DNA of 64,000 nt from a virus. Its lineage: Duplodnaviria; Heunggongvirae; Uroviricota; Caudoviricetes. The stretch is taken from IMG/VR virus record IMGVR_UViG_3300009500_000011, positions 104,585 to 168,584 of that record; one strand, 5' to 3'. Position numbers and translations under genes: made by a program. Position 1 is the first letter of the stretch; each line of letters opens with the position of its first letter. Positions 11,147 through 60,597 of this stretch are shown in pieces. The notes under the pieces were generated by a model. The model saw nothing but the letters and a program-made list of their open reading frames with translations, was not told the DNA's origin and searched no databases.

Positions 11147-11659
11147 ATGGATTTTTTAGTTGGCGATATATTAGTTTTAAAACAAGATGCTCTTGACCTT
11201 GAAGATAAAACTGGCAAAACAATTTTATATCCCGCAGGTTCCGAAGCTGAAATTATACAAATAAAAAATGAAAATGAATATCATCTGCAATTTCCAGATG
11301 CCAAAATATGGCCTCATGACTTGGCAACTTTATTGATTTTCTTTAATCGTAAAAAAGATGGTAAAAATGTTTATACTCGCCAGGTTTCAGAGTATGGTAC
11401 GCCACCAAAAGAGCTTGCTTTTTATATACCTAGAGAAGTTGATTGGCGTAAAAACTATAGGTATACTGTCAGAATTGAAGCAGAAGATTGTGGCTTTAAA
11501 AAATTGATTTGTCCTAGTTGTTTCAATGACCTGGGAGAAAATGGCGAACCAGATAATGAAGGTTTGCAAAAATGTCAAAAATGTGGTACAATGGTTCTCC
11601 CGATAGACCCATTAACATTCAAGTATCCACATGATGACGGAAATGAACACACAACTTAA
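11147..11659 (+). CDS. hypothetical protein with C-terminal CxxC...CxxC zinc ribbon
   Basis: CPSCFNDLG...CQKCGT. Confidence 0.35.
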   Translation: MDFLVGDILVLKQDALDLEDKTGKTILYPAGSEAEIIQIKNENEYHLQFPDAKIWPHDLATLLIFFNRKKDGKNVYTRQVSEYGTPPKELAFYIPREVDWRKNYRYTVRIEAEDCGFKKLICPSCFNDLGENGEPDNEGLQKCQKCGTMVLPIDPLTFKYPHDDGNEHTT

Positions 11660-12935
11660 GAGTAATTCTCAAAAATTCTTAGAAGCAGCAAATTGGGCTC
11701 TTGTAAAAGAACGCTTTGGCGAAGATACAGGAGTTAATATTCGTCGCGCTTCTATAGATAATGTGCAAAATATTACGCTTTTCAATGGTTCAAAAGGTTT
11801 ACTTTTTGATGGATATTCGTTTCCTGAACAAGAACATCTTAAAGGCTTGATTGTTCACGAAGTATTAGGAAGCGCACATTCGGTTATAGCGGCATGTTTT
11901 CCTAAATTCTATAACTATGGCGAACCTGCTGAAAAACAAAAGCATCTTGAATACTTAAATGACGATTCTATGAGTGTGTTATTTGCTAAGAAAGAGGATG
12001 GAGTAAATATTCGTCCTTATTTCAATGCTGCAACAAATAGAGTTGAATTTGCTACGCGCGGAACCTTGCTTGTTGTTTCTGATATTGAAGAAACGTCTAA
12101 TCTTGATTATGGCGCAATGGCTCGTTCAATTGCAGAAGAAAAATATCCAATTCTTTTGGATGAGGAATTTGTAAAGAAATACTCTTGTATTTTTGAAATG
12201 ATTCATCCTGATTCCAAAATTCTTACGGATTATGGACAAAGAAAAGACCTTATTCTTCTGTCAGTATTTGATTTAGAAAATAACTGCTATGAATTTTCGC
12301 GTGAATGGGTAGCATCTTGGGCAAATATAATTGGGTTAAATTATGTTGAATATTGGTTTGACCAATATGCGCCTGTTTCTGAATTTTCTTCTTTAGTTGA
12401 AAAACTACTTAAAAAATGGAACGAAACGGATGTAGAAGGTTCTGTTGTTATATTTGTAAACTCTGAAGCAGAACCTGTATATCGTCTTAAAGTTAAAAAT
12501 GCTTATTATTTACAAATGCTTCGACTTGCAAAATTTTGCACTTTGAAGAATTTAGTCTCAATCATGGAAGAAAATAACTTTTCAAATTGGGAACAACTTC
12601 GTGCATATTTGTACGAAAGCCCTTCAATGAATGAAGAATTAGAAATGGCATATAAGGCTCATTTTGATGTATATGAAAATTGGTTAGCAAATCTTGAAAT
12701 CGAAAAACAAAATGTTTTAAAAGAATATCAAGAATTACCTTCTTTCGAATTACAAAAAGATTTTGCTTTATACATCTTAAAAGATGGCGCTTATCCATAC
12801 AATCCGCTATTCTTTGCTATTCGCAAATGGTTAGCAGAAGCCAAAAATCCTAATTTAGAACAATTCTTTGAAGAAAATGTTAAAGCAACAGTAATGTTGA
12901 AGAAAATCTATCCACTATCGGAAGTAGAGGAATAA
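11631..12935 (+). CDS. RNA ligase (T4 Rnl1-like nucleotidyltransferase)
   Basis: Motif I FAKKEDGVN (KxDG), motif IV-like DVEGSVVIF, motif V-like YRLKVK. Confidence 0.55.
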   Translation: MMTEMNTQLKSNSQKFLEAANWALVKERFGEDTGVNIRRASIDNVQNITLFNGSKGLLFDGYSFPEQEHLKGLIVHEVLGSAHSVIAACFPKFYNYGEPAEKQKHLEYLNDDSMSVLFAKKEDGVNIRPYFNAATNRVEFATRGTLLVVSDIEETSNLDYGAMARSIAEEKYPILLDEEFVKKYSCIFEMIHPDSKILTDYGQRKDLILLSVFDLENNCYEFSREWVASWANIIGLNYVEYWFDQYAPVSEFSSLVEKLLKKWNETDVEGSVVIFVNSEAEPVYRLKVKNAYYLQMLRLAKFCTLKNLVSIMEENNFSNWEQLRAYLYESPSMNEELEMAYKAHFDVYENWLANLEIEKQNVLKEYQELPSFELQKDFALYILKDGAYPYNPLFFAIRKWLAEAKNPNLEQFFEENVKATVMLKKIYPLSEVEE

Positions 12936-12936
12936 C

Positions 12937-13443
12937 ATGGGTTTATTTGATTATGTAATTTGTGATTATCCTTTACCTGATTCATATAAAGGGAGTATTA
13001 AGTTTACAACTAAAGACTTAAATTCTTTTATGAATACTTTTACTATTACTGAATCAGGTCAACTTTTAGAACACAAATTTCATTTTGAAGAAGTTCCTGA
13101 AGAAGAACGTCCTAAATTTAATACACCCGAATGGAATTCTGATAACGAAACAATTAAAACTTGGACACGCTTAATGGGTTCAAAGATTCAAGTATTTGAT
13201 GGCTTGGAACCCTACCTTTACACAGGTGCTGTTTGTTTTTACGGTTCAAATTTAGATAGTTGTAATTCGGATGGATATTATACTACAGAAAATGATGAAC
13301 CTTATGAATACAAAGAATACATTGCTTTGTTTAAAAATGGTATGTTAATTAACATTATTGAAAATAATGAAAAAGACAATGAATTTTTTACTCCAGAATG
13401 TTTTTTAACACAAAAACAGTATAAAGAAAAATATAATGAATGA
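12937..13443 (+). CDS. hypothetical protein
   Basis: Track ORF between the ligase and the Thg1-like gene. Confidence 0.4.
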   Translation: MGLFDYVICDYPLPDSYKGSIKFTTKDLNSFMNTFTITESGQLLEHKFHFEEVPEEERPKFNTPEWNSDNETIKTWTRLMGSKIQVFDGLEPYLYTGAVCFYGSNLDSCNSDGYYTTENDEPYEYKEYIALFKNGMLINIIENNEKDNEFFTPECFLTQKQYKEKYNE

Positions 13444-14197
13444 CTCGCTTGGCGACCGAATGAAAACATATTATGAAGATGTGACGCGGCATTACTTGCC
13501 TCGGCGAACTCATACAATTATTCGGTTAGATGGAAAATCTTTTCATACGTATACAAAAAAATTAGCAAGACCATTTGATGCTGGTTTGATTGAAGATATG
13601 CAAAAAACCACAATTCGACTTTGTGAGAATATTCAGGGCGTTGTTCTTGGTTATACGCAATCTGATGAAATATCTCTTGTTTTATGTGATTATAAAGAAA
13701 AAGAAACTGAATCCTTTTTTAAAGGTAATATTCAAAAAATTTGTTCAGTATCTGCAAGTATGGCTACTGCATTCTTCAATGCTTTTAGACAAGCCCGTAA
13801 TTTTGAAGGTGGTCCAGCATTTTTTGATGCTAGAGTATTTACTATTCCAGAAAAGGTAGAAGTTCTTAATTATCTTATTTGGAGACAAAAAGATGCAACA
13901 AGAAATTCTATTCAAATGGCCGCACAATCTGTTTATTCTCATAAAGAACTTAATAAAAAGAAGTGGTCTGATTTAAATGAAATGCTTTTTCAGAAAGGTA
14001 TTAATTTTAATGATTATTCTTCTTCTGAAAAACGTGGTTCTTTAATTGTGAAAGAATATTTTGAAGGGGAAGCCTATGATAAGCGTAAGCAAGAAAATGT
14101 TATAGTTACTCGGTCGCGTTGGATTGTAGAACCTGAAACACCTCTTTTTACTGCTGAAGAAAATAGAGATTTATTTGAAAGGTATTTATATAAATAA
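13436..14197 (+). CDS. Thg1-like protein (tRNA-His guanylyltransferase / 3'-5' polymerase family)
   Basis: N-terminal GDRMKTYYE...HTIIRLDGKSFHTYTKK and SDEISLV match the Thg1/TLP signature. Confidence 0.6.
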   Translation: MNDSLGDRMKTYYEDVTRHYLPRRTHTIIRLDGKSFHTYTKKLARPFDAGLIEDMQKTTIRLCENIQGVVLGYTQSDEISLVLCDYKEKETESFFKGNIQKICSVSASMATAFFNAFRQARNFEGGPAFFDARVFTIPEKVEVLNYLIWRQKDATRNSIQMAAQSVYSHKELNKKKWSDLNEMLFQKGINFNDYSSSEKRGSLIVKEYFEGEAYDKRKQENVIVTRSRWIVEPETPLFTAEENRDLFERYLYK

Positions 14198-14349: not shown

Positions 14350-15051
14350 ATGTATATGCCAAAAAAACAATCTTCTCAAACACCTAGAAGAATTCCAACC
14401 ATAAGAACGGTACAATTTGAAGCCCAAACAATAAATCAAGAGAAGTTTGTAAAAAATATAGAAAGAAATGTTGTTTCATTCGGAATAGGTATACCAGGTT
14501 CAGGAAAAACGTATTTAGCATTAGCAACTGCTCTTAAAGCATTAGTTGAACAAAAATGTGAACGAGTTGTAATAACTAGACCAATGGTTGAAGCAGGTCC
14601 TTCTATCGGATTCCAACCTGGAAATGAAGAAGAAAAACTTGGAGTATATTTAAAACATATTTATGATATGATATATAAATTACTACCAAAAGTTTTGGCA
14701 GATGATTTGCTTGATTCAGGAAAAATATCAATTGGTGCTATTACATTTATGAGAGGAATGAATTTTGAAAACTCATATGTAATAATAGATGAAGCCGAAA
14801 ACTTAGACAAAAAATCATTTTATTTGTTATTAACAAGAATTTGTGAAGGGTCTAAAATGATTTTTTGTGGTGATACTGGCCAGGTTGATTTAAAAAATCC
14901 TAGTGAAAGCGGATTAAATGATGCAGTTTTAAAATTTCAAGGTAAAGAAAATTTTAGTGTAACTGAATTTACTATTGAAGATTGTCGCAGAAGTAAAGTT
15001 GTTATGGAAGTTATTAAAGCATATTTCCCTAACTCAACCAAGACAAAGTAA
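14350..15051 (+). CDS. phoH: PhoH-like ATPase
   Basis: GIGIPGSGKTYLALA Walker A, VIIDEAENL Walker B, typical PhoH length and GDTGQVDL motif. Confidence 0.75.
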   Translation: MYMPKKQSSQTPRRIPTIRTVQFEAQTINQEKFVKNIERNVVSFGIGIPGSGKTYLALATALKALVEQKCERVVITRPMVEAGPSIGFQPGNEEEKLGVYLKHIYDMIYKLLPKVLADDLLDSGKISIGAITFMRGMNFENSYVIIDEAENLDKKSFYLLLTRICEGSKMIFCGDTGQVDLKNPSESGLNDAVLKFQGKENFSVTEFTIEDCRRSKVVMEVIKAYFPNSTKTK

Positions 15052-15102: not shown

Positions 15103-16095
15103 ATGTTGTTTTTTGCAAATAAAATTAAAAAAATTGCATCAACCCCTTTATGGGCAAATGTTGTAAATTTAGATGACGGCTCTGGTCCTGTACAAGGGTT
15201 TTGGGTTGATTCAAGTTTGGGTATGCCATTCTTTTTAAGAAAATCCGACCATGTGATTTGGTTGCCTAAAACTTTACGTGGCAAAAAAATTGATTCTTTA
15301 ACACCAGAAGAATTACAAAATGTTCCGAAAGAAGATTCTGGAAAAGTTCATTATAAAAATTGGAAAGCAAATTCAGATAAAAGAAATATTGCCGCAAAAT
15401 TATTTAATGGATATGCTTTTACGGACGCTGGAATTCAATTAGTTCAAGGATTAAAAAAATTAGCAGATAAATATGAATTAGATGATGTTACAAATGTTCG
15501 TCTTGAACGTCGTCTTTCCATCAATCCTGGTCTTTTTGATAGACTTTTACAATGTAATAATCTTCAAGATGTTCAACGTCTTGGGCGTCTTATAGTAAGA
15601 AAATTTGTTTTCATTATTAAAAATATGAGTTTAACTGAACCTAAAATTGCCAAAAGATTAGATGCTGATTTTATGTATCAATACAAAAAAATTGAACCTC
15701 TTTTTGATATTGACCCGCTATCTATAGATGTAGAACTTCCTGAAACATTTGAAGAAAATGAAATTCCAGACCCACGTTTAGACCATGTTAAAGTTTTAAT
15801 GCAAAATTGTGAAGCAGAAATAGAACCAATGATGGATAATGACCTTCAGCTTTCTGCACCTCTCACTTGGCTAAAAGATGCTTCTAAAGTGCTTAAAAAA
15901 GCTCAAGATATTCAATCTGAAAATATAATGGAAGAAGTAAAATTTTATCTTATTTCAATGATTTTTTCTCTTCAAAAATTAGCAAAGGTTGCTCCTGCTG
16001 ACCATCCTCTTGTAGGTAAAGTCGAGCAAATTTTGAATGCTAAAAGTCTAAGTGCCATTTTAATGGCACTTGCAAAGACTGACCCGCAAATGTAA
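15103..16095 (+). CDS. hypothetical protein
   Basis: 330-aa track ORF with a GAGG RBS; no motif recognised. Confidence 0.4.
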   Translation: MLFFANKIKKIASTPLWANVVNLDDGSGPVQGFWVDSSLGMPFFLRKSDHVIWLPKTLRGKKIDSLTPEELQNVPKEDSGKVHYKNWKANSDKRNIAAKLFNGYAFTDAGIQLVQGLKKLADKYELDDVTNVRLERRLSINPGLFDRLLQCNNLQDVQRLGRLIVRKFVFIIKNMSLTEPKIAKRLDADFMYQYKKIEPLFDIDPLSIDVELPETFEENEIPDPRLDHVKVLMQNCEAEIEPMMDNDLQLSAPLTWLKDASKVLKKAQDIQSENIMEEVKFYLISMIFSLQKLAKVAPADHPLVGKVEQILNAKSLSAILMALAKTDPQM

Positions 16096-16302
16096 TATAG
16101 AGTCATGGAAGAAATAATTCGGGGTCGTTCTAATGAAGTTATTGGACGCCTCATCAAATCAAATGGCGAAACTAGTGTGTACGGTGACCGAGGTCAATAT
16201 CTTGGTTATGCTAACCAAAATGGAACTTTCGATGCTTCTGGGCGTCTTGTAAGCAATTCGGAATCTCCTACCCTACTTCTTCGGTAATAGTCGATAAAAT
16301 TG

Positions 16303-16331
16303 TTGACAAATCTATTTTAATAGACTATACT
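16303..16331 (+). promoter_or_regulatory. consensus promoter TTGACA-N17-TATACT (sRNA candidate)
   Basis: Exact -35, 17-nt spacer. Confidence 0.55.
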
Positions 16332-16337
16332 TTCAAT

Positions 16338-16468
16338 AGGACCCGTTGTAGGGACACCCGCCTGGGTATGACAGTCACTTGTCGTTTTGCCGGGCTGACC
16401 AAGAAATAGTGAACATTTTGCGGTCGTATTAAATAACCCCAGCGTGACTTATGTTCGCTGGGTTTTTA
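16338..16468 (+). ncRNA. candidate small RNA (~130 nt) between a consensus promoter and an intrinsic terminator
   Basis: TTGACA(16303)-N17-TATACT(16326-31) then no ORF, GC-rich hairpins, terminator CCCAGCG...CGCTGGG+TTTTT at 16437-16468. Confidence 0.4.
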
Positions 16469-16509
16469 ATTTGTTGGAAAACACTCTCAAAAATTTTTTT
16501 GAACGAATG

Positions 16510-16538
16510 TTGACAAAACTAAAAAAATGGCATATACT
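16510..16538 (+). promoter_or_regulatory. consensus promoter TTGACA-N17-TATACT (small ORF 16653..16775 and the tRNA cluster)
   Basis: Exact -35, 17-nt spacer. Confidence 0.55.
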
Positions 16539-16652
16539 ATAAATGCGAGCGGGCGGTTTAGTATCGCGTGAGTCTCATAAGCTCATCAAACTGGCGCAAA
16601 TCCACGGCTACGCAACCAATTTTTTAAATATTGAGGGAAGGAGATAATCAAA

Positions 16653-16775
16653 ATGTTGAACATTGCTTGTATTAATGAATGCATCAATTATCAAGGTACG
16701 AACGATAATCAGTTCGATACCCAATTTTTTCCGATTATCTCAGACTTCAATTCCGCAAGGGCTGTACCGGCTTAA
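16653..16775 (+). CDS. small protein (40 aa, Cys-containing)
   Basis: ATG 8 nt after AGGAGA, downstream of a consensus promoter and followed by a hairpin terminator. Confidence 0.3.
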   Translation: MLNIACINECINYQGTNDNQFDTQFFPIISDFNSARAVPA

Positions 16776-16804
16776 TAAAACCGAAAAAGCCTAAAAAGAG
16801 TCAA

Positions 16805-16840
16805 GGACTGAGATAGTAAAAATCTCGGTCCTTTTTGTTT
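16805..16840 (+). terminator. intrinsic terminator after the small ORF
   Basis: AGGACTGAGAT...ATCTCGGTCCT + TTTTTGTTT. Confidence 0.5.
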
Positions 16841-16875
16841 AATAGAACTTTGAAAACTGAATAAGATTTATTTTT

Positions 16876-16950
16876 GGCTCTATAGTGTAGTGGTCTGCAT
16901 AAAAGCTTGTCACGCTTTAGGTCGGGGGTCGGAACCCCGTAGAGTCGCCA
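16876..16950 (+). tRNA. tRNA-Asp (anticodon GTC)
   Basis: Acceptor GGCTCTA/TAGAGTC, anticodon stem AAAGC/GCTTT, loop TTGTCAC, G73, CCA encoded; unusual T-loop GTCGGAA. Confidence 0.65.
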
Positions 16951-16951
16951 T

Positions 16952-17027
16952 CCCCTTGTCGCTTAATGGTCTAAAGCAACTTACTGATAATGAGTAGATG
17001 AAAGTTCGATTCTTTCCGAGGGGACCA
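16952..17027 (+). tRNA. tRNA-Ile (anticodon GAT)
   Basis: Acceptor CCCCTTG/CGAGGGG, anticodon loop CTGATAA, T-arm GAAAG-TTCGATT-CTTTC, A73-CCA. Confidence 0.65.
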
Positions 17028-17049
17028 AAATACATATAATTTGGAATAT

Positions 17050-17126
17050 GGCAACATAGCCAAGGGGATAAAGGCGAAGGTCTGCAAAACCTTCATGCGT
17101 TGGTTCGAATCCAACTGTTGCCTCCA
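17050..17126 (+). tRNA. tRNA-Cys (anticodon GCA)
   Basis: Acceptor GGCAACA/TGTTGCC, loop CTGCAAA, T-arm GTTGG-TTCGAAT-CCAAC, U73-CCA. Confidence 0.75.
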
Positions 17127-17137
17127 ATTTAATTTAT

Positions 17138-17224
17138 GGAAGTATCGCATAGCGGCGATTGCATCTGACTGTAAATCAGACGCGCGAAAGCGCCTCGGAG
17201 GTTCGAGTCCTTCTACTTCCACCA
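17138..17224 (+). tRNA. tRNA-Tyr (anticodon GTA), type II
   Basis: Acceptor GGAAGTA/TACTTCC, loop CTGTAAA, long variable arm CGCGCGAAAGCGCCTC, T-arm GGAGG-TTCGAGT-CCTTC, A73-CCA. Confidence 0.75.
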
Positions 17225-17234
17225 TTTTAATAAT

Positions 17235-17308
17235 ATTTTGAGTTGCGCTAGAATAAAGTTACTTCGTCTGTAAAACGAGGAATCCGGGTTCGAGTCCCGG
17301 TCGGAATC
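17235..17308 (+). tRNA. tRNA-like element / possible pseudo-tRNA (anticodon loop CTGTAAA = GTA)
   Basis: Acceptor ATTTTGA/TCGGAAT (with G-U pairs), anticodon stem TTCGT/ACGAG, canonical T-arm CCGGG-TTCGAGT-CCCGG. No convincing D-stem; no CCA. Confidence 0.3.
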
Positions 17309-17399
17309 TAACGATTTCGGTACTTTAATCGGTAAAATCCTAAACACTTTGTTCGCTACCTTCGCTCAAAATATTTTAAAAACTTGTTGCCCATAGTAT

Positions 17400-17474
17400 G
17401 CCGAACTAGTATAATGGCTATTACATCTGTTTCGTAATCAGAGAATCTCAGTTCAATTCTGGGGTTCGGCCCCA
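17400..17474 (+). tRNA. tRNA-Thr (anticodon CGT)
   Basis: Acceptor GCCGAAC/GTTCGGC, loop TTCGTAA, T-arm CTCAG-TTCAATT-CTGGG, CCA encoded. Confidence 0.55.
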
Positions 17475-17485
17475 AAAAAATTTAT

Positions 17486-17562
17486 TCCTCTATAGCACAA
17501 TTGGTAGTTGCATCTGACTGTTAATCAGAGGGTTCCTGGTTCGACCCCAGGTAGAGGAGCCA
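17486..17562 (+). tRNA. tRNA-Asn (anticodon GTT), copy 1
   Basis: Acceptor TCCTCTA/TAGAGGA, stem TCTGA/TCAGA, loop CTGTTAA, G73-CCA. Confidence 0.7.
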
Positions 17563-17567
17563 ATTAT

Positions 17568-17641
17568 TCCTTCTTCGTTCAATGGTAGGACGTCTGGTTG
17601 TTACCCAGATAATCGCGGTTCAAGTCCGTGAGAAGGAGCCA
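17568..17641 (+). tRNA. tRNA-Asn (anticodon GTT), copy 2
   Basis: Acceptor TCCTTCT/AGAAGGA, stem TCTGG/CCAGA, loop TTGTTAC, G73-CCA. Confidence 0.6.
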
Positions 17642-17712
17642 ATTTATTCAGTTCGAAAATTATTATAAATTCAAACTAACTTACATACTATACATTTCAG
17701 AGGTACAAAATA

Positions 17713-18174
17713 ATGAAATGTAGAGTATGTAAAATAGAAAAAGAAATTGAATTATTCCCTTGGGCTAAAGTAGGTGCTAGACGTAGTTCTCGTTGTAAAG
17801 ATTGTCAAAAAATTTTAAGTAAAAAACACTATCAAAATAATAAAAAATATTATCAAGATAAAGAAAAAATTCGCCGCGAAAAATATTATAGTGAAACCAA
17901 TAAATTACTTTATGATTATTTAATTGAGCATCCATGTGTAAAATGTGGCGAATCTGAACCATTATTTTTGGATTTTGACCATTGTACTGGAACAAATGAT
18001 AAAATAGCAAATATTTCAGTTTTAGTTTCAATTAAAGTAAATTTTGATAAAATTCTTAAAGAAATAGAAAAATGTCAAGTATTATGTTTAAAATGCCACA
18101 GAATAAAAACTGCCAAAGAAGGTAATTGGTATAAATATCAAAGATATATAGAAAAACAAAATTTAAAAAATTAA
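17713..18174 (+). CDS. HNH homing endonuclease (family copy 1)
   Basis: CxxC pairs and HNH core FDHCTG...N...CLKCHRIKT; embedded in the tRNA cluster. Confidence 0.6.
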   Translation: MKCRVCKIEKEIELFPWAKVGARRSSRCKDCQKILSKKHYQNNKKYYQDKEKIRREKYYSETNKLLYDYLIEHPCVKCGESEPLFLDFDHCTGTNDKIANISVLVSIKVNFDKILKEIEKCQVLCLKCHRIKTAKEGNWYKYQRYIEKQNLKN

Positions 18175-18270
18175 AATCTTGCAGTTTGGGTATACTGCGT
18201 TCGTCGTCGTGGAGAAAGACTTTCTGATTAAGGATGTTTCCAAGGACAGTAAAACAAAAATACTCGTTAT

Positions 18271-18345
18271 GGCCCAGTCGTCTAGTGGCTAGGATTGCTG
18301 ATTTTCACTCAGTAGAAGGCGGGTCGGAACCGCTCTGGGCTACCA
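18271..18345 (+). tRNA. tRNA-Glu (anticodon TTC)
   Basis: Acceptor GGCCCAG/CTGGGCT, loop TTTTCAC, T-arm with GTCGGAA loop (as in tRNA-Asp), A73-CCA. Confidence 0.65.
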
Positions 18346-18372
18346 AATTTTAGATTAAGAAAAGAGAAGAGA

Positions 18373-18615
18373 ATGCAAAAAATTCAAATTGTTTATACAG
18401 ATAATCCAAGTGAAATAGAAGCAGTTTTTATTGATGGTAAGATAGTTGCTGCTTGGTATTTAAGTGATGCAAGTTGGCGTGGTGAATATTTTAATGGATT
18501 CATGGGAAAACTTGGTATTGAAGTAGATGATTATAGTCGAGCAACTTCGGAACAAATTGAATCTATTAAAGATTGGTTTAATTTAGATGAAGATGAATTA
18601 CTTTATGCCTTATGA
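18373..18615 (+). CDS. hypothetical protein
   Basis: Track ORF; its 3' end overlaps the tRNA-Gln 5' end. Confidence 0.4.
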   Translation: MQKIQIVYTDNPSEIEAVFIDGKIVAAWYLSDASWRGEYFNGFMGKLGIEVDDYSRATSEQIESIKDWFNLDEDELLYAL

Positions 18616-18676
18616 TGTAATGGTAGCATAAGATGCTCTGAACATCTTTGTAATCGTTCGAGTCGATTTAAGGCAG
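18606..18676 (+). tRNA. tRNA-Gln (anticodon CTG)
   Basis: Acceptor TGCCTTA/TAAGGCA, stem AGATG/CATCT, loop CTCTGAA, T-arm AATCG-TTCGAGT-CGATT, G73, no CCA. Confidence 0.6.
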
Positions 18677-18684
18677 CGATTTAA

Positions 18685-18759
18685 TCCCTTGTCGTCTAAT
18701 TGGTAGGACGCGAGATTTTGGTTCTCGCTATCGTGGTTCGAGTCCATGCGAGGGAACCA
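18685..18759 (+). tRNA. tRNA-Gln (anticodon TTG)
   Basis: Acceptor TCCCTTG/CGAGGGA, stem CGAGA/TCTCG, loop TTTTGGT, T-arm CGTGG-TTCGAGT-CCATG, A73-CCA. Confidence 0.55.
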
Positions 18760-18766
18760 GTTTTAT

Positions 18767-18843
18767 TGGAGAATGGCCAAGTTGGTAAGGCACCTCGCTT
18801 TGAACGAGGAAATGCGAAGGTTCGATGCCTTCTTCTCCAGCCA
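18767..18843 (+). tRNA. tRNA with anticodon TTG (Gln-type loop CTTTGAA), atypical 6-nt variable region
   Basis: Acceptor TGGAGAA/TTCTCCA, D-arm GCC-AAGTTGGTAA-GGC, stem CCTCG/CGAGG, T-arm GAAGG-TTCGATG-CCTTC, G73-CCA. Confidence 0.45.
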
Positions 18844-18867
18844 AATTTTTTAAATATCAAACATCGA

Positions 18868-18943
18868 CCGGGTTTAGCTGAGACGGTTCAAGCGTGTCCC
18901 TGAAGAGGACGAGACGGGGATTCGAGCGCCCCAACCCGGACCA
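18868..18943 (+). tRNA. tRNA-Phe (anticodon GAA)
   Basis: Acceptor CCGGGTT/AACCCGG, stem TGTCC/GGACG, loop CTGAAGA, A73-CCA; T-stem has one A-G mismatch. Confidence 0.55.
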
Positions 18944-18948
18944 ATCAT

Positions 18949-19020
18949 TGGAGTGGTAGCATAGAGGTAATGTACCGTTTTATCGCGAGCGGGATGAAGG
19001 TTCGAGTCCTTCCCCTCCAG
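18949..19020 (+). tRNA. tRNA-like gene with 8-nt anticodon loop (TTATCGCG) - identity unclear
   Basis: Acceptor TGGAGTG/CCCTCCA (one mismatch), D-arm GCAT-AGAGGTA-ATGT, stem CCGTT/AGCGG enclosing 8 nt, canonical T-arm GAAGG-TTCGAGT-CCTTC. Confidence 0.35.
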
Positions 19021-19040
19021 TTCTTTTTTAAAAAGAAATC

Positions 19041-19214
19041 ATGATTAATAAACAATTAGTAAAAGAAGTTGCTGCTCGAATTAAAAATCCATCACCACGT
19101 ACAGCAAAGCGTGAATCTTTTGCTATTGCTTCTATGGTAGCAGAATCTTTAAAATTATCAGGAATAATGACAACTCTAGAAGATGTTTTAAAATCTTATT
19201 ATGGAGATAAATAA
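19041..19214 (+). CDS. hypothetical small protein (57 aa)
   Basis: ATG after AAAAGAAATC, open frame to TAA 19212-19214; below the ORF-track length cut-off. Confidence 0.3.
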   Translation: MINKQLVKEVAARIKNPSPRTAKRESFAIASMVAESLKLSGIMTTLEDVLKSYYGDK

Positions 19215-19217
19215 TTT

Positions 19218-19496
19218 ATGATGAGATTCAAACCTGGTGATAAAGTAACAGCAGTTTTTTCTGCTGATAAGACAGCCCACATAATGAAATATCCAAATGG
19301 TTTGCCCGGATATGACCATTGTTGTGACAAATGCCGTGGCGTTGCTCGCATGGTTTGTTTGGCGTTTATGCATTATGATTTTGGAATTAAAGAGGGAACG
19401 CTTTTACCTACTTGTGAGTTTTGTGCAAAAGGTTTAATTGATGAAGGTAATTTATCTCCTGCTCTTGGAAAATATTTAAAAGAGATACAGGTATGA
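19218..19496 (+). CDS. Cys-rich (zinc-binding) small protein
   Basis: HCCDKCRG...CEFC. Confidence 0.35.
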   Translation: MMRFKPGDKVTAVFSADKTAHIMKYPNGLPGYDHCCDKCRGVARMVCLAFMHYDFGIKEGTLLPTCEFCAKGLIDEGNLSPALGKYLKEIQV

Positions 19497-19696
19497 AATA
19501 CAAAGTTGTTTATGAATATTATGCCGGAATGGGTGATTATGGTATTGATGAACGATTTATAGAATCAAGAGAAGAATTAATTAAAATTTTAAATAATGTT
19601 TTTAGGGACGATATAATGATTAATGCTATCAAAATTTATCGTTTAAATCCAAATAGCGAATATTTAGGAGAAATAGATTATCATGACAAAATTTGA
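19493..19696 (+). CDS. hypothetical protein
   Basis: Track ORF, overlapping start/stop. Confidence 0.3.
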   Translation: MKYKVVYEYYAGMGDYGIDERFIESREELIKILNNVFRDDIMINAIKIYRLNPNSEYLGEIDYHDKI

Positions 19697-19913
19697 AGCC
19701 TTGCCTCAATCTCAAGAAAAATATAACCGTAATACAACAACTGACAAAGTTCCTAATGCTACTCAGGCTTCTTTTCGTCGTGCTGAAATGTTAATATGTA
19801 AACATTGCAAGAAAAACTGGAATGAGCATTTAGGTTATTTTGTTGGCAAAGCAGTTCCTGGAATGTGTTTAACTGAAGAAAATTTTAAAGAAACAGGAAC
19901 AAAAATCTCTTAG
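19683..19913 (+). CDS. hypothetical protein
   Basis: Track ORF; CKHCKK motif. Confidence 0.3.
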   Translation: MTKFEALPQSQEKYNRNTTTDKVPNATQASFRRAEMLICKHCKKNWNEHLGYFVGKAVPGMCLTEENFKETGTKIS

Positions 19914-19950
19914 TATAAGATAATAATAGAAATTATATTGTCTTTGATTT

Positions 19951-20026
19951 GCAGGTGTCGTATAATGGATAATTACAGGGCATTGCCAATGCTCAAATAG
20001 GAGTTCGATTCTCCTTACCTGCTCCA
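19951..20026 (+). tRNA. tRNA-Gly (anticodon GCC)
   Basis: Acceptor GCAGGTG/TACCTGC, stem GGGCA/TGCTC, loop TTGCCAA, T-arm AGGAG-TTCGATT-CTCCT, U73-CCA. Confidence 0.75.
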
Positions 20027-20045
20027 ATATATAAAAAAAGGCAAT

Positions 20046-20414
20046 ATGTTTTCGCGTAAAATTTTTAAACCAGTTGAAATTCCAAAGTTTGATTTAAGAC
20101 CAATTAAATTACAAAGATTAGCATTTATAAAAAATTCTTGCTTTCACTCTGATTATTTATGTGTAGAACCCAATGTTGTTGAAGAAATAAAATTCTTTAA
20201 AGACAAATTTTATCCAGTTCAATTCTTTGAAAAAGTAACTCAATTTACTCTATACAGAAGTTTAGACTATTTAGATAATAATACTACTATTGGATTTTAT
20301 AAATATTCTAATATATTTAATATTAATACTAATTTAATAGATTGGATAGGACAAGAATTTGATACCGAGGAATTTCTTAATTATCATGAAGTTATAAAGG
20401 TTACGCGCAAATGA
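20046..20414 (+). CDS. hypothetical protein
   Basis: Track ORF. Confidence 0.35.
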   Translation: MFSRKIFKPVEIPKFDLRPIKLQRLAFIKNSCFHSDYLCVEPNVVEEIKFFKDKFYPVQFFEKVTQFTLYRSLDYLDNNTTIGFYKYSNIFNINTNLIDWIGQEFDTEEFLNYHEVIKVTRK

Positions 20415-20578
20415 CAGATTCAACTGTAGATGCAATAAAAAATATGAATCAATTTAAAGATAAACATAGACGTATGCAACTTATGGCTGATATTTTTGAT
20501 GCTTCAAAAGATTTTGAAGAAGATGAAGAAAATAATATAGAAGTAAAAAAAGAAGTTAAAAATAATGCAAATAAATGA
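20411..20578 (+). CDS. hypothetical small acidic protein (55 aa)
   Basis: ATG at 20411, frame closes at TGA 20576-20578; overlaps neighbours by 4 and 14 nt. Confidence 0.3.
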   Translation: MTDSTVDAIKNMNQFKDKHRRMQLMADIFDASKDFEEDEENNIEVKKEVKNNANK

Positions 20579-20777
20579 AACATCTGTTTACGAACTTCGT
20601 TTAAAATATCCTCTTAATGGCGCTTCTTCTCAGGAAGAAGTTCATAAACGCCTTAAGGATATTTCTGCTTTATTAAAAGAGCATGGGTTTACTTCTGTTG
20701 AAATAACTGCTGCGGGTCTTGAAGTTGCTAGTGGAGATTTAGACATTAGAACTTTTAAAACTCCTTTGAAATACTAA
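20565..20777 (+). CDS. hypothetical protein
   Basis: Track ORF. Confidence 0.3.
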   Translation: MQINETSVYELRLKYPLNGASSQEEVHKRLKDISALLKEHGFTSVEITAAGLEVASGDLDIRTFKTPLKY

Positions 20778-21223
20778 TGTTAGAGCGTAATCAAGATATA
20801 TTAACTCAAATTAATGAACCTCATGTAGCAACCTGTGTGACAACGAATGCAGTAGTCAAACAGGATGGTAAAGCGGTAATGGGTGCAGGGGTTGCAAAAG
20901 TTATTAGAGACATGTATAGTGGTTCCGACACAATTTTAGGTGCGCTTATTAAAACTTATGGGCATAAAGTTCAACAGTTTTGGATAACACCTGCATTAGT
21001 ATCTTTTCCTACTAAAGACCATTTCAAAAATAAATCAAATATTTCTTTAATTCAACGTTCTGCAAAAGAACTTTACGAATGGGCAAATCTTAATACACAA
21101 TATTTGACCATAATATTGCCAAGACCTGGTTGCAATAATGGGGGTTTAAATTGGGAAGATATAAAACCAACACTAGAATCAATCTTAGTAGATAATAGAT
21201 TTGTTGTAATAGATAAAGGATGA
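20777..21223 (+). CDS. macro-domain-like protein (ADP-ribose binding/hydrolase?)
   Basis: TCVTTNAVVKQDGKAVMGAGVAKVI resembles the macro-domain N-terminal motif (V.AAN..L.GGGV). Confidence 0.35.
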   Translation: MLERNQDILTQINEPHVATCVTTNAVVKQDGKAVMGAGVAKVIRDMYSGSDTILGALIKTYGHKVQQFWITPALVSFPTKDHFKNKSNISLIQRSAKELYEWANLNTQYLTIILPRPGCNNGGLNWEDIKPTLESILVDNRFVVIDKG

Positions 21224-34465: not shown

Positions 34466-35905
34466 TTGAACAAAATTTACGACCTTATCATTATTGGAAC
34501 TGGCCCAGCAGGTTTTTTCTGTGCAATAGATTTAGTTAGAAAAGGATATACAAATATCCTTATGATTGATAAAGGTTCTCTTCGTACAGGTAAATCAGAC
34601 GAAAATGTGACAGAAGGATGGGCAGGGGCTGGGGCACATTCCGATGGTAAGGTCAATATGACTCATAAAGTCGGAGGAATCTTAGCCGACGTTATTGGGT
34701 TAAAGCGTTTCCATGAGTTATTAGAAAAACAAGACCAAATGTGGCTTGATTTTTCTCCAACAAATGAACAAAAAAAATTACGTCAACAAAAATCTCCTGA
34801 TGCTGATTTAGATGTAAGGTTATTCGTTCCAACTGATGAATCTAAAATTTTAAGAGCTAAAGCCTTAGCAAATCACATGGAACTTGAAACATATCCAATA
34901 AGACATTTGGGCACAGATAATATGTTAGATTCAACTAACAATATGCTCGAATATCTTAAATCTAATGGTGTTGAAGTAGTATTAGAGGCTGAAGTAAAGC
35001 AAATCTGTAAATATAAAAATGAAGAAGAATTTGTAGTAAGAGTTCAAAAAAAAGATAGTTGGTGTGACCCAGAATTTGGAGACTATGAACTTGAACATTA
35101 TGACGGGAAGAATGTTCTTATTGCTACAGGACGCTCTGGGGGGCATTTCTTCCGTGAAACCATGCAATGCTTAGATATTCCTATGTTAAATAATGGCGTT
35201 GATATTGGTGTTCGTGTCGAAGTTCCAAATGAGATTACAGATGGACTCTTAAAAGCCGGTATTTATGAACCTAAAATGCTTTATAGAACACCAACATTTG
35301 ACGATTCCGTTCGCACATTTTGCTGGTGTAATAGTGGATTTGTTGCAATAGAAGAATATCGTGATACCGGAATTAAGACAGTTAATGGTCATTCCTATGC
35401 CGACAAGAAATCTAACAATACAAATTTTGCTTTACTTGTTACAAAAACATTTACTTCGCCATTCGATAACCCACAAGCATATGCAGAATCAGTTTCAAGA
35501 ATGGCCAATCTTTTATCGGGTAATTCTGTTTTAGTTCAAAGATATGGAGATTTTAAAGCAGGTAGACGTACAACAGAAAAAAGATTAAATGAAGGAGCCC
35601 TTGTTCCAACTCTTGATGCAGTACCAGGAGATTTATCTCTTGCTATTCCTTATCGTCAAATGTTGGCAATCGGAGAAATGTTAGAAGCTATGGACAAAGT
35701 TTTACCAGGTATTGCAAGTAAATACACCTTGTTATACGGTATTGAAGCTAAATTCTATAGCAATCGAGTTAATATTGATTCAAATAGTATGACAGAAATT
35801 AAAGGTCTTTATGTTGCTGGAGACGGTTCTGGATGGACAAGAGGGTTAAATCAAGCGGCAATTCAAGGACTTGTTGTTAGTGAAGGAATTTTAAATGCAA
35901 AATAA
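34466..35905 (+). CDS. FAD/NAD(P)-binding oxidoreductase (COG2509-like)
   Basis: N-terminal dinucleotide fold DLIIIGTGPAGFFCAIDL and C-terminal GLYVAGDGSG. Confidence 0.55.
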   Translation: MNKIYDLIIIGTGPAGFFCAIDLVRKGYTNILMIDKGSLRTGKSDENVTEGWAGAGAHSDGKVNMTHKVGGILADVIGLKRFHELLEKQDQMWLDFSPTNEQKKLRQQKSPDADLDVRLFVPTDESKILRAKALANHMELETYPIRHLGTDNMLDSTNNMLEYLKSNGVEVVLEAEVKQICKYKNEEEFVVRVQKKDSWCDPEFGDYELEHYDGKNVLIATGRSGGHFFRETMQCLDIPMLNNGVDIGVRVEVPNEITDGLLKAGIYEPKMLYRTPTFDDSVRTFCWCNSGFVAIEEYRDTGIKTVNGHSYADKKSNNTNFALLVTKTFTSPFDNPQAYAESVSRMANLLSGNSVLVQRYGDFKAGRRTTEKRLNEGALVPTLDAVPGDLSLAIPYRQMLAIGEMLEAMDKVLPGIASKYTLLYGIEAKFYSNRVNIDSNSMTEIKGLYVAGDGSGWTRGLNQAAIQGLVVSEGILNAK

Positions 35906-36233: not shown

Positions 36234-36779
36234 ATGTTCGAAAAACTAAAAACTTTTTTAAGCGTTGCCTATGATGTAATTCGCGGACGCGCTTTAGTAG
36301 AAACGCTTCATCCACGTAAACGTAATAAAGTTCGTTTGGAAATTATTCGTGCTGATGGCACAAGAGAATTACTTTCCGCAGGATGCAATAGTCGTGTAAA
36401 TAGCGGAGCAAACTGGCAAGCTTCACTTATGGGAAGTGCCGCAGGTACACCAGCAAATTATATGGCCCTTTCAACGGCAACATTATCTCCTGCTCTTACA
36501 GATACTTCACTTACCGGAGAAATTACTTCAGGTACAAATGCTGGACTTGCAAGAACACAAGCAACATATCAAAACTATACAGCACCAACAACCTTGGGCG
36601 GTCCTGCTTCATATCAATTGCAACATACATTTACTTCTTCAGCAACCGCTACAGTAAATAGTGCTGCTCTTTTTAATGCGTCTTCTTCTGGAACAATGTT
36701 CGTTGAAGCAAACCTTTCCCCCTCTGCCACACTTGCTTCTGGGGACCAGATAGTTTTAACGTGGAGTGTTCAAATTTAA
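36234..36779 (+). CDS. Ala/Thr/Ser-rich protein, possibly structural
   Basis: ATG 36234 with GAAGGAG upstream (the track start is TTG 36213); low-complexity surface-like composition. Confidence 0.35.
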   Translation: MFEKLKTFLSVAYDVIRGRALVETLHPRKRNKVRLEIIRADGTRELLSAGCNSRVNSGANWQASLMGSAAGTPANYMALSTATLSPALTDTSLTGEITSGTNAGLARTQATYQNYTAPTTLGGPASYQLQHTFTSSATATVNSAALFNASSSGTMFVEANLSPSATLASGDQIVLTWSVQI

Positions 36780-36826: not shown

Positions 36827-37306
36827 TTGTTATATGATTCTATCATGGAAGATATGAATTTATTCAAAAAATGTGGTCATTGCAAATTAGTTTATCGTAA
36901 AACTTTCTTTTTTAATAATAAAGCAAGATATGATGGATTAAGTAGTCAATGCAAAAAGTGCCATCAAGAAGACACTACCAAACGATATAATTCATTAAAA
37001 CAAAAATGTTTTGAAAAATATGGTGGTAAATGTATAAAATGTGGCGATACTGATAGTCGAGTTCTTCAATTTGACCATATAAATGGTGGTGGTGCAAAAG
37101 AATTAAAAAGTCAAATTTTTGGCGGAACTTATGTACCTTCTACTTACTTTCAAAAAGTTTTAAAAGATACTACAAATAAATTTCAATTATTATGTGTAAG
37201 ATGTAATTGGATAAAGAGACATGAGGAACGTGAGCAGTTTACTCGTCTGAATGAGCAGCCAATTACAGGTGAATTACTTCAAAGGTTTATAGAATATAGG
37301 GGCTAA
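36827..37306 (+). CDS. HNH homing endonuclease (family copy 2)
   Basis: CGHCK...CKKCH ... QFDHINGGG ... CVRCNWIKRHEE. Confidence 0.6.
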   Translation: MLYDSIMEDMNLFKKCGHCKLVYRKTFFFNNKARYDGLSSQCKKCHQEDTTKRYNSLKQKCFEKYGGKCIKCGDTDSRVLQFDHINGGGAKELKSQIFGGTYVPSTYFQKVLKDTTNKFQLLCVRCNWIKRHEEREQFTRLNEQPITGELLQRFIEYRG

Positions 37307-45400: not shown

Positions 45401-45519
45401 GTTCGAGTCCATTAAGTGTAGTCGGTACACAACTGTAGTTGTTCCATTCGTTTAAATTTTATTTAATCCTTGGGAATATATTTCTCAAGGATTTTTTTGT
45501 TGTCATAAAGGAAAAAAGA

Positions 45520-47205
45520 ATGAAATACAATACTAAAACAGTAAATGCTGGTCCAGGAACAAAAATGATAAATCTTGCAGGCGGAGAAGCTTTTAAAGTT
45601 GATAATCGTACTGCATTATATTTAACTTCTGCAACTTCTTTAGGTGGCGGTCAAGGAAATAAATATTATGTTTCTGCAAATCAAGAATACAAAAATATTC
45701 TTGAACTAATTGAAAAGGTTTCCGCTCAAGACCCAGAATTTATTTTCCAATTGGCTGCATATTGTCGTCAAGATTTATACCTTCGTAGTATTCCAACGGT
45801 ATTATTTATCGAAGGTATTCGTGCAATGCATAAGCAAAAAAAGGCCAATGCACCATATCCAGTAGATGCATCTAAGTATGCAAATGCTATTTTTGGTCGT
45901 GCTGATGAAATTGTTGAAGCAGTTGCATATTGGCTTGGAGTTGAAGGCCATCACAAATTGCCTTCCCCTCTTCGTAAATCTTTGACCATTGCTTTAAATT
46001 CATTTGATGAATACCGCTTGCTTAAATATAATCAAGAAGATAAGCAAGTTACATTTAAAGATATTGTTCGTCTTGTGCATCCAGAACCAAAAACTGATGT
46101 GCAAAGTGCAATTTTCAAATACTTCATCAAGGATGAAATCAGTCCAGAATTAATGCCAAAGGCAACTGCCCGCAAGGCTTTGCTTTCACGTACTCAATTT
46201 GATGAAGAAGCACAACGCTTGATGAGAGATTCATCTGCTACTTGGGAAACTGTAATTGCTAAATTCGGTTCGACTAAAGAAATTTGGGAAGCAGTTATTC
46301 CAAATATGGGATACATGGCTTTATTACGTAATCTTAATAATTTTCTTAAAAAAGAAGTAGATTTAGATTTAGTAATTCCTCGCCTTGTGAATCCGCAAGA
46401 AATTCGTAAAAGCAAGCAATTGCCTTTCCGTTTTTACACAGCAATGAAACAACTTGGTGTAGAAGATAACAATAAGAATTCTACGATGACATATTATGGA
46501 TATTCCGATTCAGTAAAAACAGCATTTGAAAAATGGCGTAATGTAAATTCTAGCGATGGAATTTCTCGTTTACGTAATGCTCTTGGTGTTGCTATGAATA
46601 TTGCAGTAGAAAATGTTCCTCACCTTTCAGGTCGTACCGTTGTTGCGGCAGACCTTTCTGGTTCTATGAGTCAACCTCTTAATAACAAATCAAATGTAAC
46701 TTATCGTGAAATCGCTTGTATTATGGCTGGTATTGCTGGTTCAATAGCACCAGATAATGTAATTTGTGGATTTGGTTGTTCATTTGCTGTTGCTAAAAAA
46801 GGCAAAGATATTCTTGAAACTGCAAATAATATTGATAAATTAAATGTTGGAATGTCAACGGATGCATGGCGTATTCTTGATTACTTGCTTACAAACAAAA
46901 TTTTTGTAGATAGAGTCATGTATTTTACAGATACACAATGTTATAATTCATATGGGGGCGCAAATTTAAACGAACTTTGGAAAAAATACAAAGTTCTTTG
47001 CCAATCAACTGGTAAAAAAGTTCCTGTTCTTTATGAAGTAAATCTTGCAGGTGGTAATACATCTAGTTTTAATTCTGAACAAAGAGTTGCTACCATTGGT
47101 GGATGGTCTGAAAGAATTTTTGATTTAATTACTACTTATGAAACTGACCCTCGTCAAGCAATAAGTAAAATTAAAGAAAAATATTCAGATTTAGTATCTG
47201 TTTAA
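45520..47205 (+). CDS. Ro60/TROVE-domain protein with C-terminal vWA/MIDAS
   Basis: Size, helical N-terminal repeats and C-terminal VVAADLSGSMS MIDAS motif as in Ro60/Rsr orthologues. Start set at ATG 45520 (AAAGGAAAAAAGA upstream). Confidence 0.5.
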   Translation: MKYNTKTVNAGPGTKMINLAGGEAFKVDNRTALYLTSATSLGGGQGNKYYVSANQEYKNILELIEKVSAQDPEFIFQLAAYCRQDLYLRSIPTVLFIEGIRAMHKQKKANAPYPVDASKYANAIFGRADEIVEAVAYWLGVEGHHKLPSPLRKSLTIALNSFDEYRLLKYNQEDKQVTFKDIVRLVHPEPKTDVQSAIFKYFIKDEISPELMPKATARKALLSRTQFDEEAQRLMRDSSATWETVIAKFGSTKEIWEAVIPNMGYMALLRNLNNFLKKEVDLDLVIPRLVNPQEIRKSKQLPFRFYTAMKQLGVEDNNKNSTMTYYGYSDSVKTAFEKWRNVNSSDGISRLRNALGVAMNIAVENVPHLSGRTVVAADLSGSMSQPLNNKSNVTYREIACIMAGIAGSIAPDNVICGFGCSFAVAKKGKDILETANNIDKLNVGMSTDAWRILDYLLTNKIFVDRVMYFTDTQCYNSYGGANLNELWKKYKVLCQSTGKKVPVLYEVNLAGGNTSSFNSEQRVATIGGWSERIFDLITTYETDPRQAISKIKEKYSDLVSV

Positions 47206-54924: not shown

Positions 54925-55179
54925 ATGAACATGGATACTAAATCACAGAATTCGGAAGAAACAAAAATTGTAGGTCGTACTGCTTTAGTTACTGGCAAAA
55001 TTGGCCCAGACACACTTGGTCAAGTTACTGTTGCTATACGTGAAGGCACAGATACATATTCTGCGCGTTCGGCTCATCCTGACGAAGTAATATCTGTTGG
55101 TTCTGAAGTTGTAATTTCAAAGTTTTTTCCTCCACGGACTGTTTTAGTTTCAAAAACTACTACTTCTACGAAAGAATAA
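54925..55179 (+). CDS. NfeD-like OB-fold protein (short form)
   Basis: GRTALVTGKIGPDTLGQVTVAIREGTDTYSARS...ISVGSEVVI resembles the NfeD C-terminal beta-barrel, and sits directly upstream of an SPFH gene. Confidence 0.45.
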   Translation: MNMDTKSQNSEETKIVGRTALVTGKIGPDTLGQVTVAIREGTDTYSARSAHPDEVISVGSEVVISKFFPPRTVLVSKTTTSTKE

Positions 55180-55185
55180 TAAATC

Positions 55186-59297: not shown

Positions 59298-59326
59298 TTG
59301 TCTTTTCCACAACAATGATATATAAT
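59298..59326 (+). promoter_or_regulatory. promoter TTGTCT-N17-TATAAT for the 27-aa peptide gene
   Basis: Perfect -10, 17-nt spacer. Confidence 0.45.
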
Positions 59327-59382
59327 GCTACAAGTGTGGATTTTCCACATAATTTGATTAAAGAAGAAAGGAACTTATCGAA

Positions 59383-59466: not shown

Positions 59467-59496
59467 AGTAACCTTAAGGTCTAAAAAAGAATTTAG

Positions 59497-60515: not shown

Positions 60516-60519
60516 ATAT

Positions 60520-60593: not shown

Positions 60594-60597
60594 ATTT

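Follow-up and report, generated by a model that had tools for sequence, protein, structure and literature searches.

Three small genes for HNH-type endonucleases are present in the 64,000-nucleotide stretch of Caudoviricetes DNA considered here (positions 104,585 to 168,584 of IMG/VR record IMGVR_UViG_3300009500_000011; hereafter the window). We number them by position as copy 1 (17713), copy 2 (36827) and copy 3 (the 59591 region). All three proteins match one family, PHROG 2255 ('HNH endonuclease'), with E-values from 3e-19 to 7e-28. The genes, with the starts adopted here, are:

17713 to 18174, plus strand: HNH copy 1, 153 amino acids (aa), within the tRNA array; PHROG 2255 at E 7e-28
36845 to 37306, plus strand: HNH copy 2, 153 aa from ATG; PHROG 2255 at E 3e-19
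59627 to 60082, plus strand: HNH copy 3, 151 aa from ATG; PHROG 2255 at E 1e-27

A preliminary description, made from the letters alone, had listed these open reading frames (ORFs) as 17713-18174, 36827-37306 and 59591-60082, all on the plus strand, and all of them exist. Its start for copy 1 is retained, but those for copies 2 and 3 are upstream TTG codons (36827 and 59591). We place the start of copy 2 at the ATG at 36845 (MEDMNLF...), following the gene call of the ortholog in a related virus, and that of copy 3 at the ATG at 59627 (MKTCLNCK...), the exact 151-aa protein being called on a Joint Genome Institute (JGI) contig. The genes do lie where they had been said to lie (inside the tRNA cluster, between a structural gene and the fibre gene, and after a small-peptide gene), except that copy 3 is not merely downstream of a small-peptide gene, but within a disrupted tRNA-Pro gene. 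No fourth member was found in the six-frame translation of the window using a hidden Markov model built from the three copies.

The proteins share a layout in which an N-terminal CxxC...CxxC ribbon is followed by CxxCG...(L/Q)DFDH...CxxC(H/N)xIK. This preserves the CxxC and FDH arrangement first noticed, but with four CxxC pairs, not two, and with CNWIK rather than CH.IK in copy 2. In an alignment of 44 family members, residues C75, C78, H90, K120, C125 and C128 are invariant, and D89, C121, H129 and K132 are conserved in at least 90%. H90 of DFDH, the general-base His of the DH motif, is present in all three copies. H129, which follows the second CxxC, is His in copies 1 and 3 and Asn in copy 2 and its ortholog. 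The 44 sequences share no conserved Asn in the interval from DFDH to the last CxxC; the invariant K120 and the near-invariant C121 fill the stretch ahead of strand 2. The catalytic His-Asn-His expected on alignment is not conserved as a literal triad: the middle Asn is absent, and the last His is Asn in copy 2. The middle Asn of H-N-H is structural and variable across the superfamily, and its absence is therefore not taken to exclude HNH membership. T4 endonuclease VII and I-HmuI are examples of active His-Me nucleases with Asn at the last metal-ligand position.

The predicted structure is in line with this assignment. AlphaFold2 modelled copy 1 with a predicted local distance difference test score of 95.5 at full length and 93.1 for the trimmed core, in which a strand (LDFDH), a 30-residue helical insert, a second strand (CQVLC) and a helix (CH...) follow one another. 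The Pfam HNH profile (PF01844) matches 13 of the 44 aligned members at E <= 0.01 (best 2.2e-6). Weaker PHROG matches are to other HNH PHROGs and to 'endonuclease VII' (phrog_1035 and phrog_2633, E 1e-6 to 1e-7). For the three proteins no match to Pfam Endonuclease_7 was found at E <= 1; a search of NCBIfam returned no meaningful match, and full-length fold searches were uninformative. Together, the sequence and predicted-fold evidence supports an HNH fold well, though not decisively.

The genes had been described as paralogous, but they are not recent paralogs within this genome. Pairwise identity among them is merely 36-37%, compared with 42-62% to homologs on other contigs (best matches of 61% for copy 1, 42% for copy 2 and 62% for copy 3), and we reject recent intragenomic duplication. 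Clustered at 50% identity, the family counts 81,170 representatives at E <= 1e-3 and 31,891 at E <= 1e-10. Tandem versions, with two to five repeats per protein, are common (e.g., L011 3445-4455, loci L012-L014, and representatives P0249-P0396) and dominate the best scores in a search of 1.84 billion proteins.

The window sequence recurs in metagenomes, on contigs of Logan SRR5829579 and on JGI contigs as long as 168,584 bp. The closest relative is contig_29692 of ENA ERZ25039479 (274,834 bp, ~91-96% nucleotide identity), represented here by loci L003, L015 and L016; loci L002, L004, L017 and L018 come from related, shorter contigs. Aligned blocks between the window and relative contigs are mostly 85-97% identical. 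A megablast search of positions 16000-21000 against cultured phages returned one tRNA-Asn as its sole match, and thus we recognize no close cultured relative.

Copy 3 is absent from L016, L017 and L018, where 162 nucleotides (nt) without an HNH gene separate the flanking 50-aa gene from a 115/130-aa gene. BLAST places window positions 59567-60128 opposite just 20 nt in these loci, between flanks that are 93.4-96.7% and 93.6-93.8% identical and that show no evident identity step at the gene. The comparison with related phages that had been proposed earlier gives, for copy 3, a clean presence/absence polymorphism at a collinear locus. The empty site in the relatives is an intact tRNA-Pro(tgg) gene (L016 9903-9978). 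The corresponding features of the window are:

59532 to 59566, plus strand: remnant of tRNA-Pro(UGG), the 5' half to the anticodon loop (...CCTGGA), placed by alignment to L016 9903-9978
59567 to 60147, plus strand: segment replacing the 3' half of tRNA-Pro, with a leader of ~60 nt, HNH copy 3 and cloverleaf B
60073 to 60147, plus strand: cloverleaf B, a tRNA-Pro(UGG)-like element of 75 nt from a minimum-free-energy fold, ending in ACCA
60520 to 60593, plus strand: second tRNA-Pro(UGG), canonical (ARAGORN; Rfam 63 bits), also in the relatives

The remnant matches the tRNA-Pro of the relatives base for base, save for a one-G deletion, and diverges past the anticodon. Cloverleaf B folds with a 7-bp acceptor stem, a 4-bp D stem, a UGG anticodon arm and a 4-bp T stem, and aligns with tRNA-Pro genes of other phages. 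Its positions 8-10 are the TAA stop codon of copy 3 (60080-60082). The D and T loops are non-canonical, the T-loop lacking TTCRA, and the element was called neither by ARAGORN nor by the Rfam tRNA model at E <= 10. Relatives carry both tRNA-Pro genes, and in the window the canonical gene could cover for the loss of the disrupted one. The intact tRNA-Pro of the relatives is most simply read as the ancestral state, converted by a cassette of copy 3 plus cloverleaf B.

We considered and rejected a group I intron of the tRNA gene as the carrier of copy 3. No group I or group II intron was matched at E <= 10 in 59300-60700 (or around copy 1, in 17350-18700), only ~100 nt of the insert are non-coding, and the upstream half-tRNA cannot pair with the 3' strand of cloverleaf B. 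Since the halves are unpairable and no intron family matches, the insert is a replacement rather than an intron. P0145, the homolog closest to copy 3, lies in another gene context, at locus L033, with the same layout: an anticodon-arm-like TCTGACCTGGAC opens the shared leader and is followed by the HNH gene and by a tRNA-Pro(tgg) that begins inside the stop codon, the overlap being only ~2 nt. Judged from these sequence comparisons, mobility of copy 3 is well supported.

Copy 1 lies within the tRNA array, 71 nt past a tRNA-Asn gene and 96 nt ahead of a tRNA-Glu gene:

17486 to 17641, plus strand: pair of differing tRNA-Asn(GUU) genes, immediately 5' of copy 1
18271 to 18345, plus strand: tRNA-Glu(UUC), the first tRNA 3' of copy 1, without a TTCRA T-loop

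The relative has a 153-aa ortholog at the same site of its tRNA array, with just 65% aa identity to copy 1. At the nucleotide level the gene region is 79.6% identical, against 91-94% for flanking DNA, and nonsynonymous divergence (dN) is 0.30, whereas neighbouring genes have dN of 0.005-0.07 and protein identities of 88-99%. The divergence is limited to codons 39-140 (52% aa and 62% nt identity, synonymous divergence (dS) 0.92). Codons 1-38 have a dS of 0.23, and little or no difference is seen in the last 13 codons and in the spacer downstream (dS 0-0.23 for the gene ends). In its core, copy 1 shares 68% identity with P0003, an unlinked homolog, and only 60% with the positional ortholog. At the tRNA-Asn site the relative has one gene, a third variant, and it is precisely at 17486/17637 that the BLAST alignment is interrupted. 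The sequence immediately 3' of the copy 1 stop codon yielded no tRNA-like element. The counterpart of tRNA-Glu in the relative (L003 10559-10635) forms a cloverleaf with the T-loop GGCAGAA, as in cloverleaf B; its anticodon loop differs, and ARAGORN does not report it. Copy 1 and the neighbouring tRNA-Asn are a mosaic patch of allele replacement centred there, and not evidence of recent insertion. The preliminary description had the copies marking mobile islands and explaining mosaic gene content; this is not supported for the set, in that only copy 1 coincides with a mosaic boundary.

Copy 2 sits between a Gp80-like fibre I gene, our anchor for comparing relatives, and a gene for a 1191-aa fibre protein:

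36234 to 36779, plus strand: Gp80-like fibre I gene (Pfam PF23140 Gp80, E 6e-6)

The ortholog in the relative occupies the same junction, is 90.8% identical in aa sequence and retains CNWIK, within a block of 95.4% nucleotide identity. The dN/dS ratio between the two is 0.28, and the flanks show no evident identity step at the gene. More distant loci compared at this site are of the L005 type, the L009 type and L011-L014, and these three lineages have Gp80-like proteins that are 63-67% identical. No gene is found at the copy 2 position in the L005-type and L009-type relatives. In L011-L014 the position is taken by a 336-aa gene with two repeats that resemble copy 2 (identities of 42% and 33%), and in L011 the last motif of the repeats is altered further (LCQNHN and LCANHN). 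A scan of IMG/VR with the Gp80-like protein as query found nothing. Promoter and terminator scans did not rise above shuffled controls; a TTGACT-17-TATGAT motif 7 nt before the copy 2 start is non-significant. Copy 2 therefore falls in a distinct 'H..N' sub-lineage that recurs at the fibre-gene junction, kept by selection here and patchy over longer time.

Homologs of the family lie close to tRNA genes in many other viruses. Annotated cultured-phage examples of the PHROG 2255/PF01844 type include Mycobacterium cluster C phages Dandelion (gp160) and Myrna (gp210), Streptomyces phages Mildred21 and JimJam, Pseudomonas phage KIL4 and Felix O1-like phages. In 11 of the 14 cultured-virus lineages sampled, among them a Haloarcula virus and a crAss-like phage, the nearest annotated tRNA or pseudo-tRNA is at most 22 nt from the homolog. 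An overlap of 10 nt between the ORF and the tRNA that follows it is seen in KIL4, JimJam, S-CAM3, Francesca and the archaeal virus HCTV-16. The neighbour is tRNA-Pro in several cases: on both sides in JimJam (tRNA-Pro(tgg)), downstream in S-CAM3 and immediately upstream in Francesca and Dandelion. A survey of IMG/VR found a tRNA within 1.5 kb at 49 of 80 loci. Same-strand tRNAs starting -25 to +11 nt from the HNH stop codon occur at 20 of 76 non-identical IMG/VR loci (7 of them at -10); for the other ORFs of these tRNA-rich loci, which serve as the control, the count is 16 of 202 (odds ratio 4.2, Fisher p 1.8e-4). The 10-nt overlap itself was considered as a family signature and downgraded, as control ORFs also end at -10. 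A stop codon at tRNA positions 8-10 is probably the generic result of an ORF entering the conserved U8-A9-G10.

A TTCRA T-loop is missing from only 3 of the 33 tRNA-type elements of the window: tRNA-Asp (16876-16950), tRNA-Glu (18271-18345) and cloverleaf B. The latter two are the first tRNA-type elements 3' of copy 1 and copy 3, respectively, which hints at immunity of the target site. The odd T-loop is a weaker candidate for a general form of immunity in that JimJam, S-CAM3, Francesca and KIL4 have canonical T-loops in the tRNAs fused to their homologs.

We consider it probable that the three genes are independently acquired members of one HNH family, selfish elements of the homing type that favour tRNA genes. 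In this interpretation we infer nuclease activity, target sites and homing as follows. Each protein would combine its N-terminal zinc ribbon with an HNH (beta-beta-alpha-metal) core stabilized by a Cys4 site. The enzyme would cut the nuclease-free allele of a co-infecting relative, and recombinational repair would copy the nuclease gene plus flanking DNA into the cut genome. In the case of copy 3, the 3' half of tRNA-Pro(UGG) has been swapped for a cassette in which a leader and the HNH gene are followed by a tRNA-Pro-like element that the cassette itself brings; because that half was replaced, the likely target is the intact tRNA-Pro gene near the anticodon arm. Copy 1 would be an older resident of the tRNA array, with its centre and the adjacent tRNA-Asn exchanged for divergent alleles, and for this copy the homing-type reading is supported indirectly. 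Copy 2 would belong to its separate sub-lineage, fixed between two fibre genes and kept by purifying selection; here the homing-type reading is ambiguous, and the gene may have been domesticated.

Free-standing homing endonucleases had been proposed from the outset. The lack of any intron or intein signal, the three separate ORFs and the polymorphism of copy 3 agree with that proposal, as do the allele replacement around copy 1 and the patchy occurrence of copy 2 in more distant relatives. Copies 1 and 2 are not recent insertions, as the closest relative has both at the same sites. Several observations weigh against the interpretation. Recent mobility is seen only for copy 3. The window proteins fall below the Pfam HNH threshold (E 0.04-0.22, or no match), and a sequence search of the PDB with full-length and core profiles gave no significant match to a solved structure, the noise consisting of zinc-ribbon and cytochrome-c CxxCH matches, with McrA and a phage HNH protein at E 0.4-0.9. 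Nuclease activity is a prediction for all family members examined. Roughly 39% of the family loci surveyed lie more than 1.5 kb from any tRNA. Finally, the purifying selection on copy 2 and its fixed position by a fibre gene fit a domesticated role as well as a selfish one.

Domestication is the alternative that survives best, and it overlaps with selfish homing rather than excluding it; as the explanation for the three genes we nevertheless think it unlikely. It holds that the nucleases benefit the phage: copies 1 and 3 might drive amplification or turnover of tRNA genes as an escape from tRNA-targeting host defences, and copy 2 might promote recombination of the fibre (host-range) module. 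There is precedent in the SegB of T-even phages, which amplifies tRNA genes segmentally, defeats the Septu defence and is statistically associated with tRNAs (PMC13096335), and nuclease genes have been reported at the boundaries of genetic exchange in phages (PMC10448857). Tandem yet divergent tRNA-Asn genes adjoin copy 1, although the two clearly differ and so are no recent duplicates. Copy 2 has its low dN/dS, and its position is kept after Gp80-like genes that are only 64% identical. Copy 3 fits poorly: it broke a tRNA gene instead of amplifying one, and it is dispensable, since there are relatives without it.

It is considerably less probable that one or more copies are catalytically dead, or are zinc-finger DNA-binding proteins such as regulators. 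Copy 2 is the main candidate: it and its ortholog carry Asn at the near-invariant H129, the last Cys of the motif has also been lost from the tandem relative in L011, and the Pfam match is below threshold. Against this, none of the three window copies has lost the general-base His or the Cys4 site, because those alignment positions are kept; moreover, all three ORFs are complete, and dN/dS is below 1 for copies 1 and 2 (copy 3 has no ortholog in the relative). Junction resolvases of the endonuclease VII type, or non-mobile HNH maturation proteins associated with packaging, are very improbable: they are suggested by the weak endonuclease VII PHROG matches, by the annotation of some database homologs and by the CxxCN of copy 2, which we take to resemble the arrangement in T4 gp49 (endonuclease VII), but the HNH PHROG match is better by 20 orders of magnitude, Pfam Endonuclease_7 is not matched, three divergent copies of which one is dispensable in relatives are a poor fit for a core maturation enzyme, and no copy adjoins a terminase gene within the window.

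Other features of the window and its relatives were recorded alongside the HNH genes. The window has a G+C content of 32.6%, with genes almost all on one strand, and 32 tRNA genes, which cloverleaf B raises to the 33 tRNA-type elements counted above. Nearly all of the tRNA genes encode the 3' CCA. Within the array, a second tRNA-Tyr(gta) call of 67 nt (17242-17308) directly follows a normal tRNA-Tyr of 87 nt and is also present in relatives; it may be a truncated or atypical tRNA. ARAGORN further calls a tRNA with a four-base anticodon (atcg) and no assigned identity at 18948-19021, kept at L002 12380-12453 and L003 11238-11311, which could be a frameshift-suppressor-like tRNA or a mis-call. 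Also encoded are a primase, ribonucleotide reductase, RNA ligase, Thg1, PhoH and Ro60-like genes. The RNA and translation toolkit is dense at 11631-14197 and 45439-47205 (T4-type RNA ligase, Thg1-like and Ro60/TROVE-like proteins). Pfam labels for an Acb5-like gene (60892-61110) and an eIF-1a-like gene (61694-61924) come solely from orthologs in related loci, and a direct Pfam scan of window 60892-61107 identified no family at E <= 0.001.

Most other insertions and deletions between the window and its relative are inteins, TnpB elements or unrelated segments. The relative has intein-like in-frame insertions at L003 5681-7435 (window 14350-15051) and L015 7177-9672 (window 34466-35905). Its PhoH is 584 aa with a faint Hom_end_hint match, compared with 233 aa in the window; the FAD-dependent protein, 831 aa long there and 479 aa in the window, weakly matches LAGLIDADG_3. 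Both insertions are missing from the window, and the BLAST alignment breaks exactly there. TnpB/IS605 OrfB (Cas12f-like) insertions occur at L002 10826-12040 and at L017 816-1949 and 7224-8417, with the window sites empty; one TnpB insertion lies directly 3' of the copy 1 ortholog, splitting an 80-aa gene. Segments present in the window and not in the 274-kb relative are 54927-56511, 57547-58067 and 60674-60890. The first, a 1.6-kb block, includes the greater part of a 477-aa gene (55186-56619) that weakly matches a 'lipoprotein' PHROG, and another window-only stretch contains tRNA-Ala (60793-60867). HNH genes of other families (HNH_3, RRXRR and HNH/HNH_5) are found near the sampled regions at L003 19344-19895 (minus strand), L002 20170-20462 and L011 11146-11260.

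As a whole, the finding in the window is largely routine, small HNH genes being among the commonest selfish genes of large phages. The useful part is the anatomy of copy 3, which leads to a specific target prediction, tRNA-Pro(UGG) near the anticodon arm, for an uncharacterized and abundant family, and which suggests one route by which phage tRNA sets are reshuffled. If the target prediction is true, the family could supply new sequence-specific nucleases. A broader proposal, to which we give only tentative and limited credence, is that the family or large branches of it constitute a tRNA-gene-specific drive in bacterial and archaeal viruses, equipped with a fused, cleavage-resistant replacement tRNA. 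The nuclease would cut a given tRNA gene (here the predicted tRNA-Pro(UGG) target) in nuclease-free genomes, and would arrive with a tightly fused replacement tRNA. The stop codon lies inside tRNA positions 8-10 in some cassettes, so that nuclease and tRNA would be hard to separate, and maturation of the tRNA by RNase P would sever the nuclease mRNA immediately ahead of the stop codon. If true, such elements would be a main engine of turnover in phage tRNA repertoires.

The link between HNH genes and tRNA arrays is already published, and the three genes are new members of a known and very abundant family. HNH genes have been reported to be the most widespread coding sequences in Mycobacterium-associated tRNA arrays and have been proposed to spread or diversify these arrays (PMC5966550, PMC6409571, PMC6582537). 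A literature search of incomplete coverage found no paper on tRNA-Pro replacement by this HNH family. The small HNH endonucleases of cultured phages resemble the window copies in combining a zinc ribbon with CxxCG...DFDH...CxxCH, at 30-40% identity over ~85-95% of the length, and share the habit of lying inside tRNA arrays and abutting a tRNA gene. Identity of the window copies to cultured-phage proteins is at most 39%, and copy 2 differs in its H-to-N change and in its site between fibre genes rather than tRNAs. We know of no cultured-phage homolog with a mapped cleavage site.

No significant sequence similarity was detected to T4 MobE, to other free-standing HNH homing endonucleases or to the HNH nicking endonucleases of the phage T5 tRNA region (the F-Tfl enzymes; SciA, structure 9qgx). 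T4 endonuclease VII (gp49) has the His-Me finger and the Cys4 zinc site that are predicted for the window copies, with Asn after the second CxxC as in copy 2; unlike it, the window copies are multiple and dispensable, and probably have an N-terminal zinc ribbon instead of dimerization helices. The nearest parallel in behaviour is SegB, which homes in the tRNA cluster of T4, drives its own inheritance together with that of neighbouring tRNA genes, and recognizes a conserved motif of tRNA genes (PMC2330249). It is a free-standing nuclease gene in a phage tRNA cluster, like copy 1, and is missing from close relatives, like copy 3. Its GIY-YIG fold is unrelated to HNH, and its cleavage and homing are experimental results, whereas those of the window copies are predicted. 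Copy 3, unlike SegB, has taken the place of part of a tRNA gene and has brought with it a replacement tRNA-like element.

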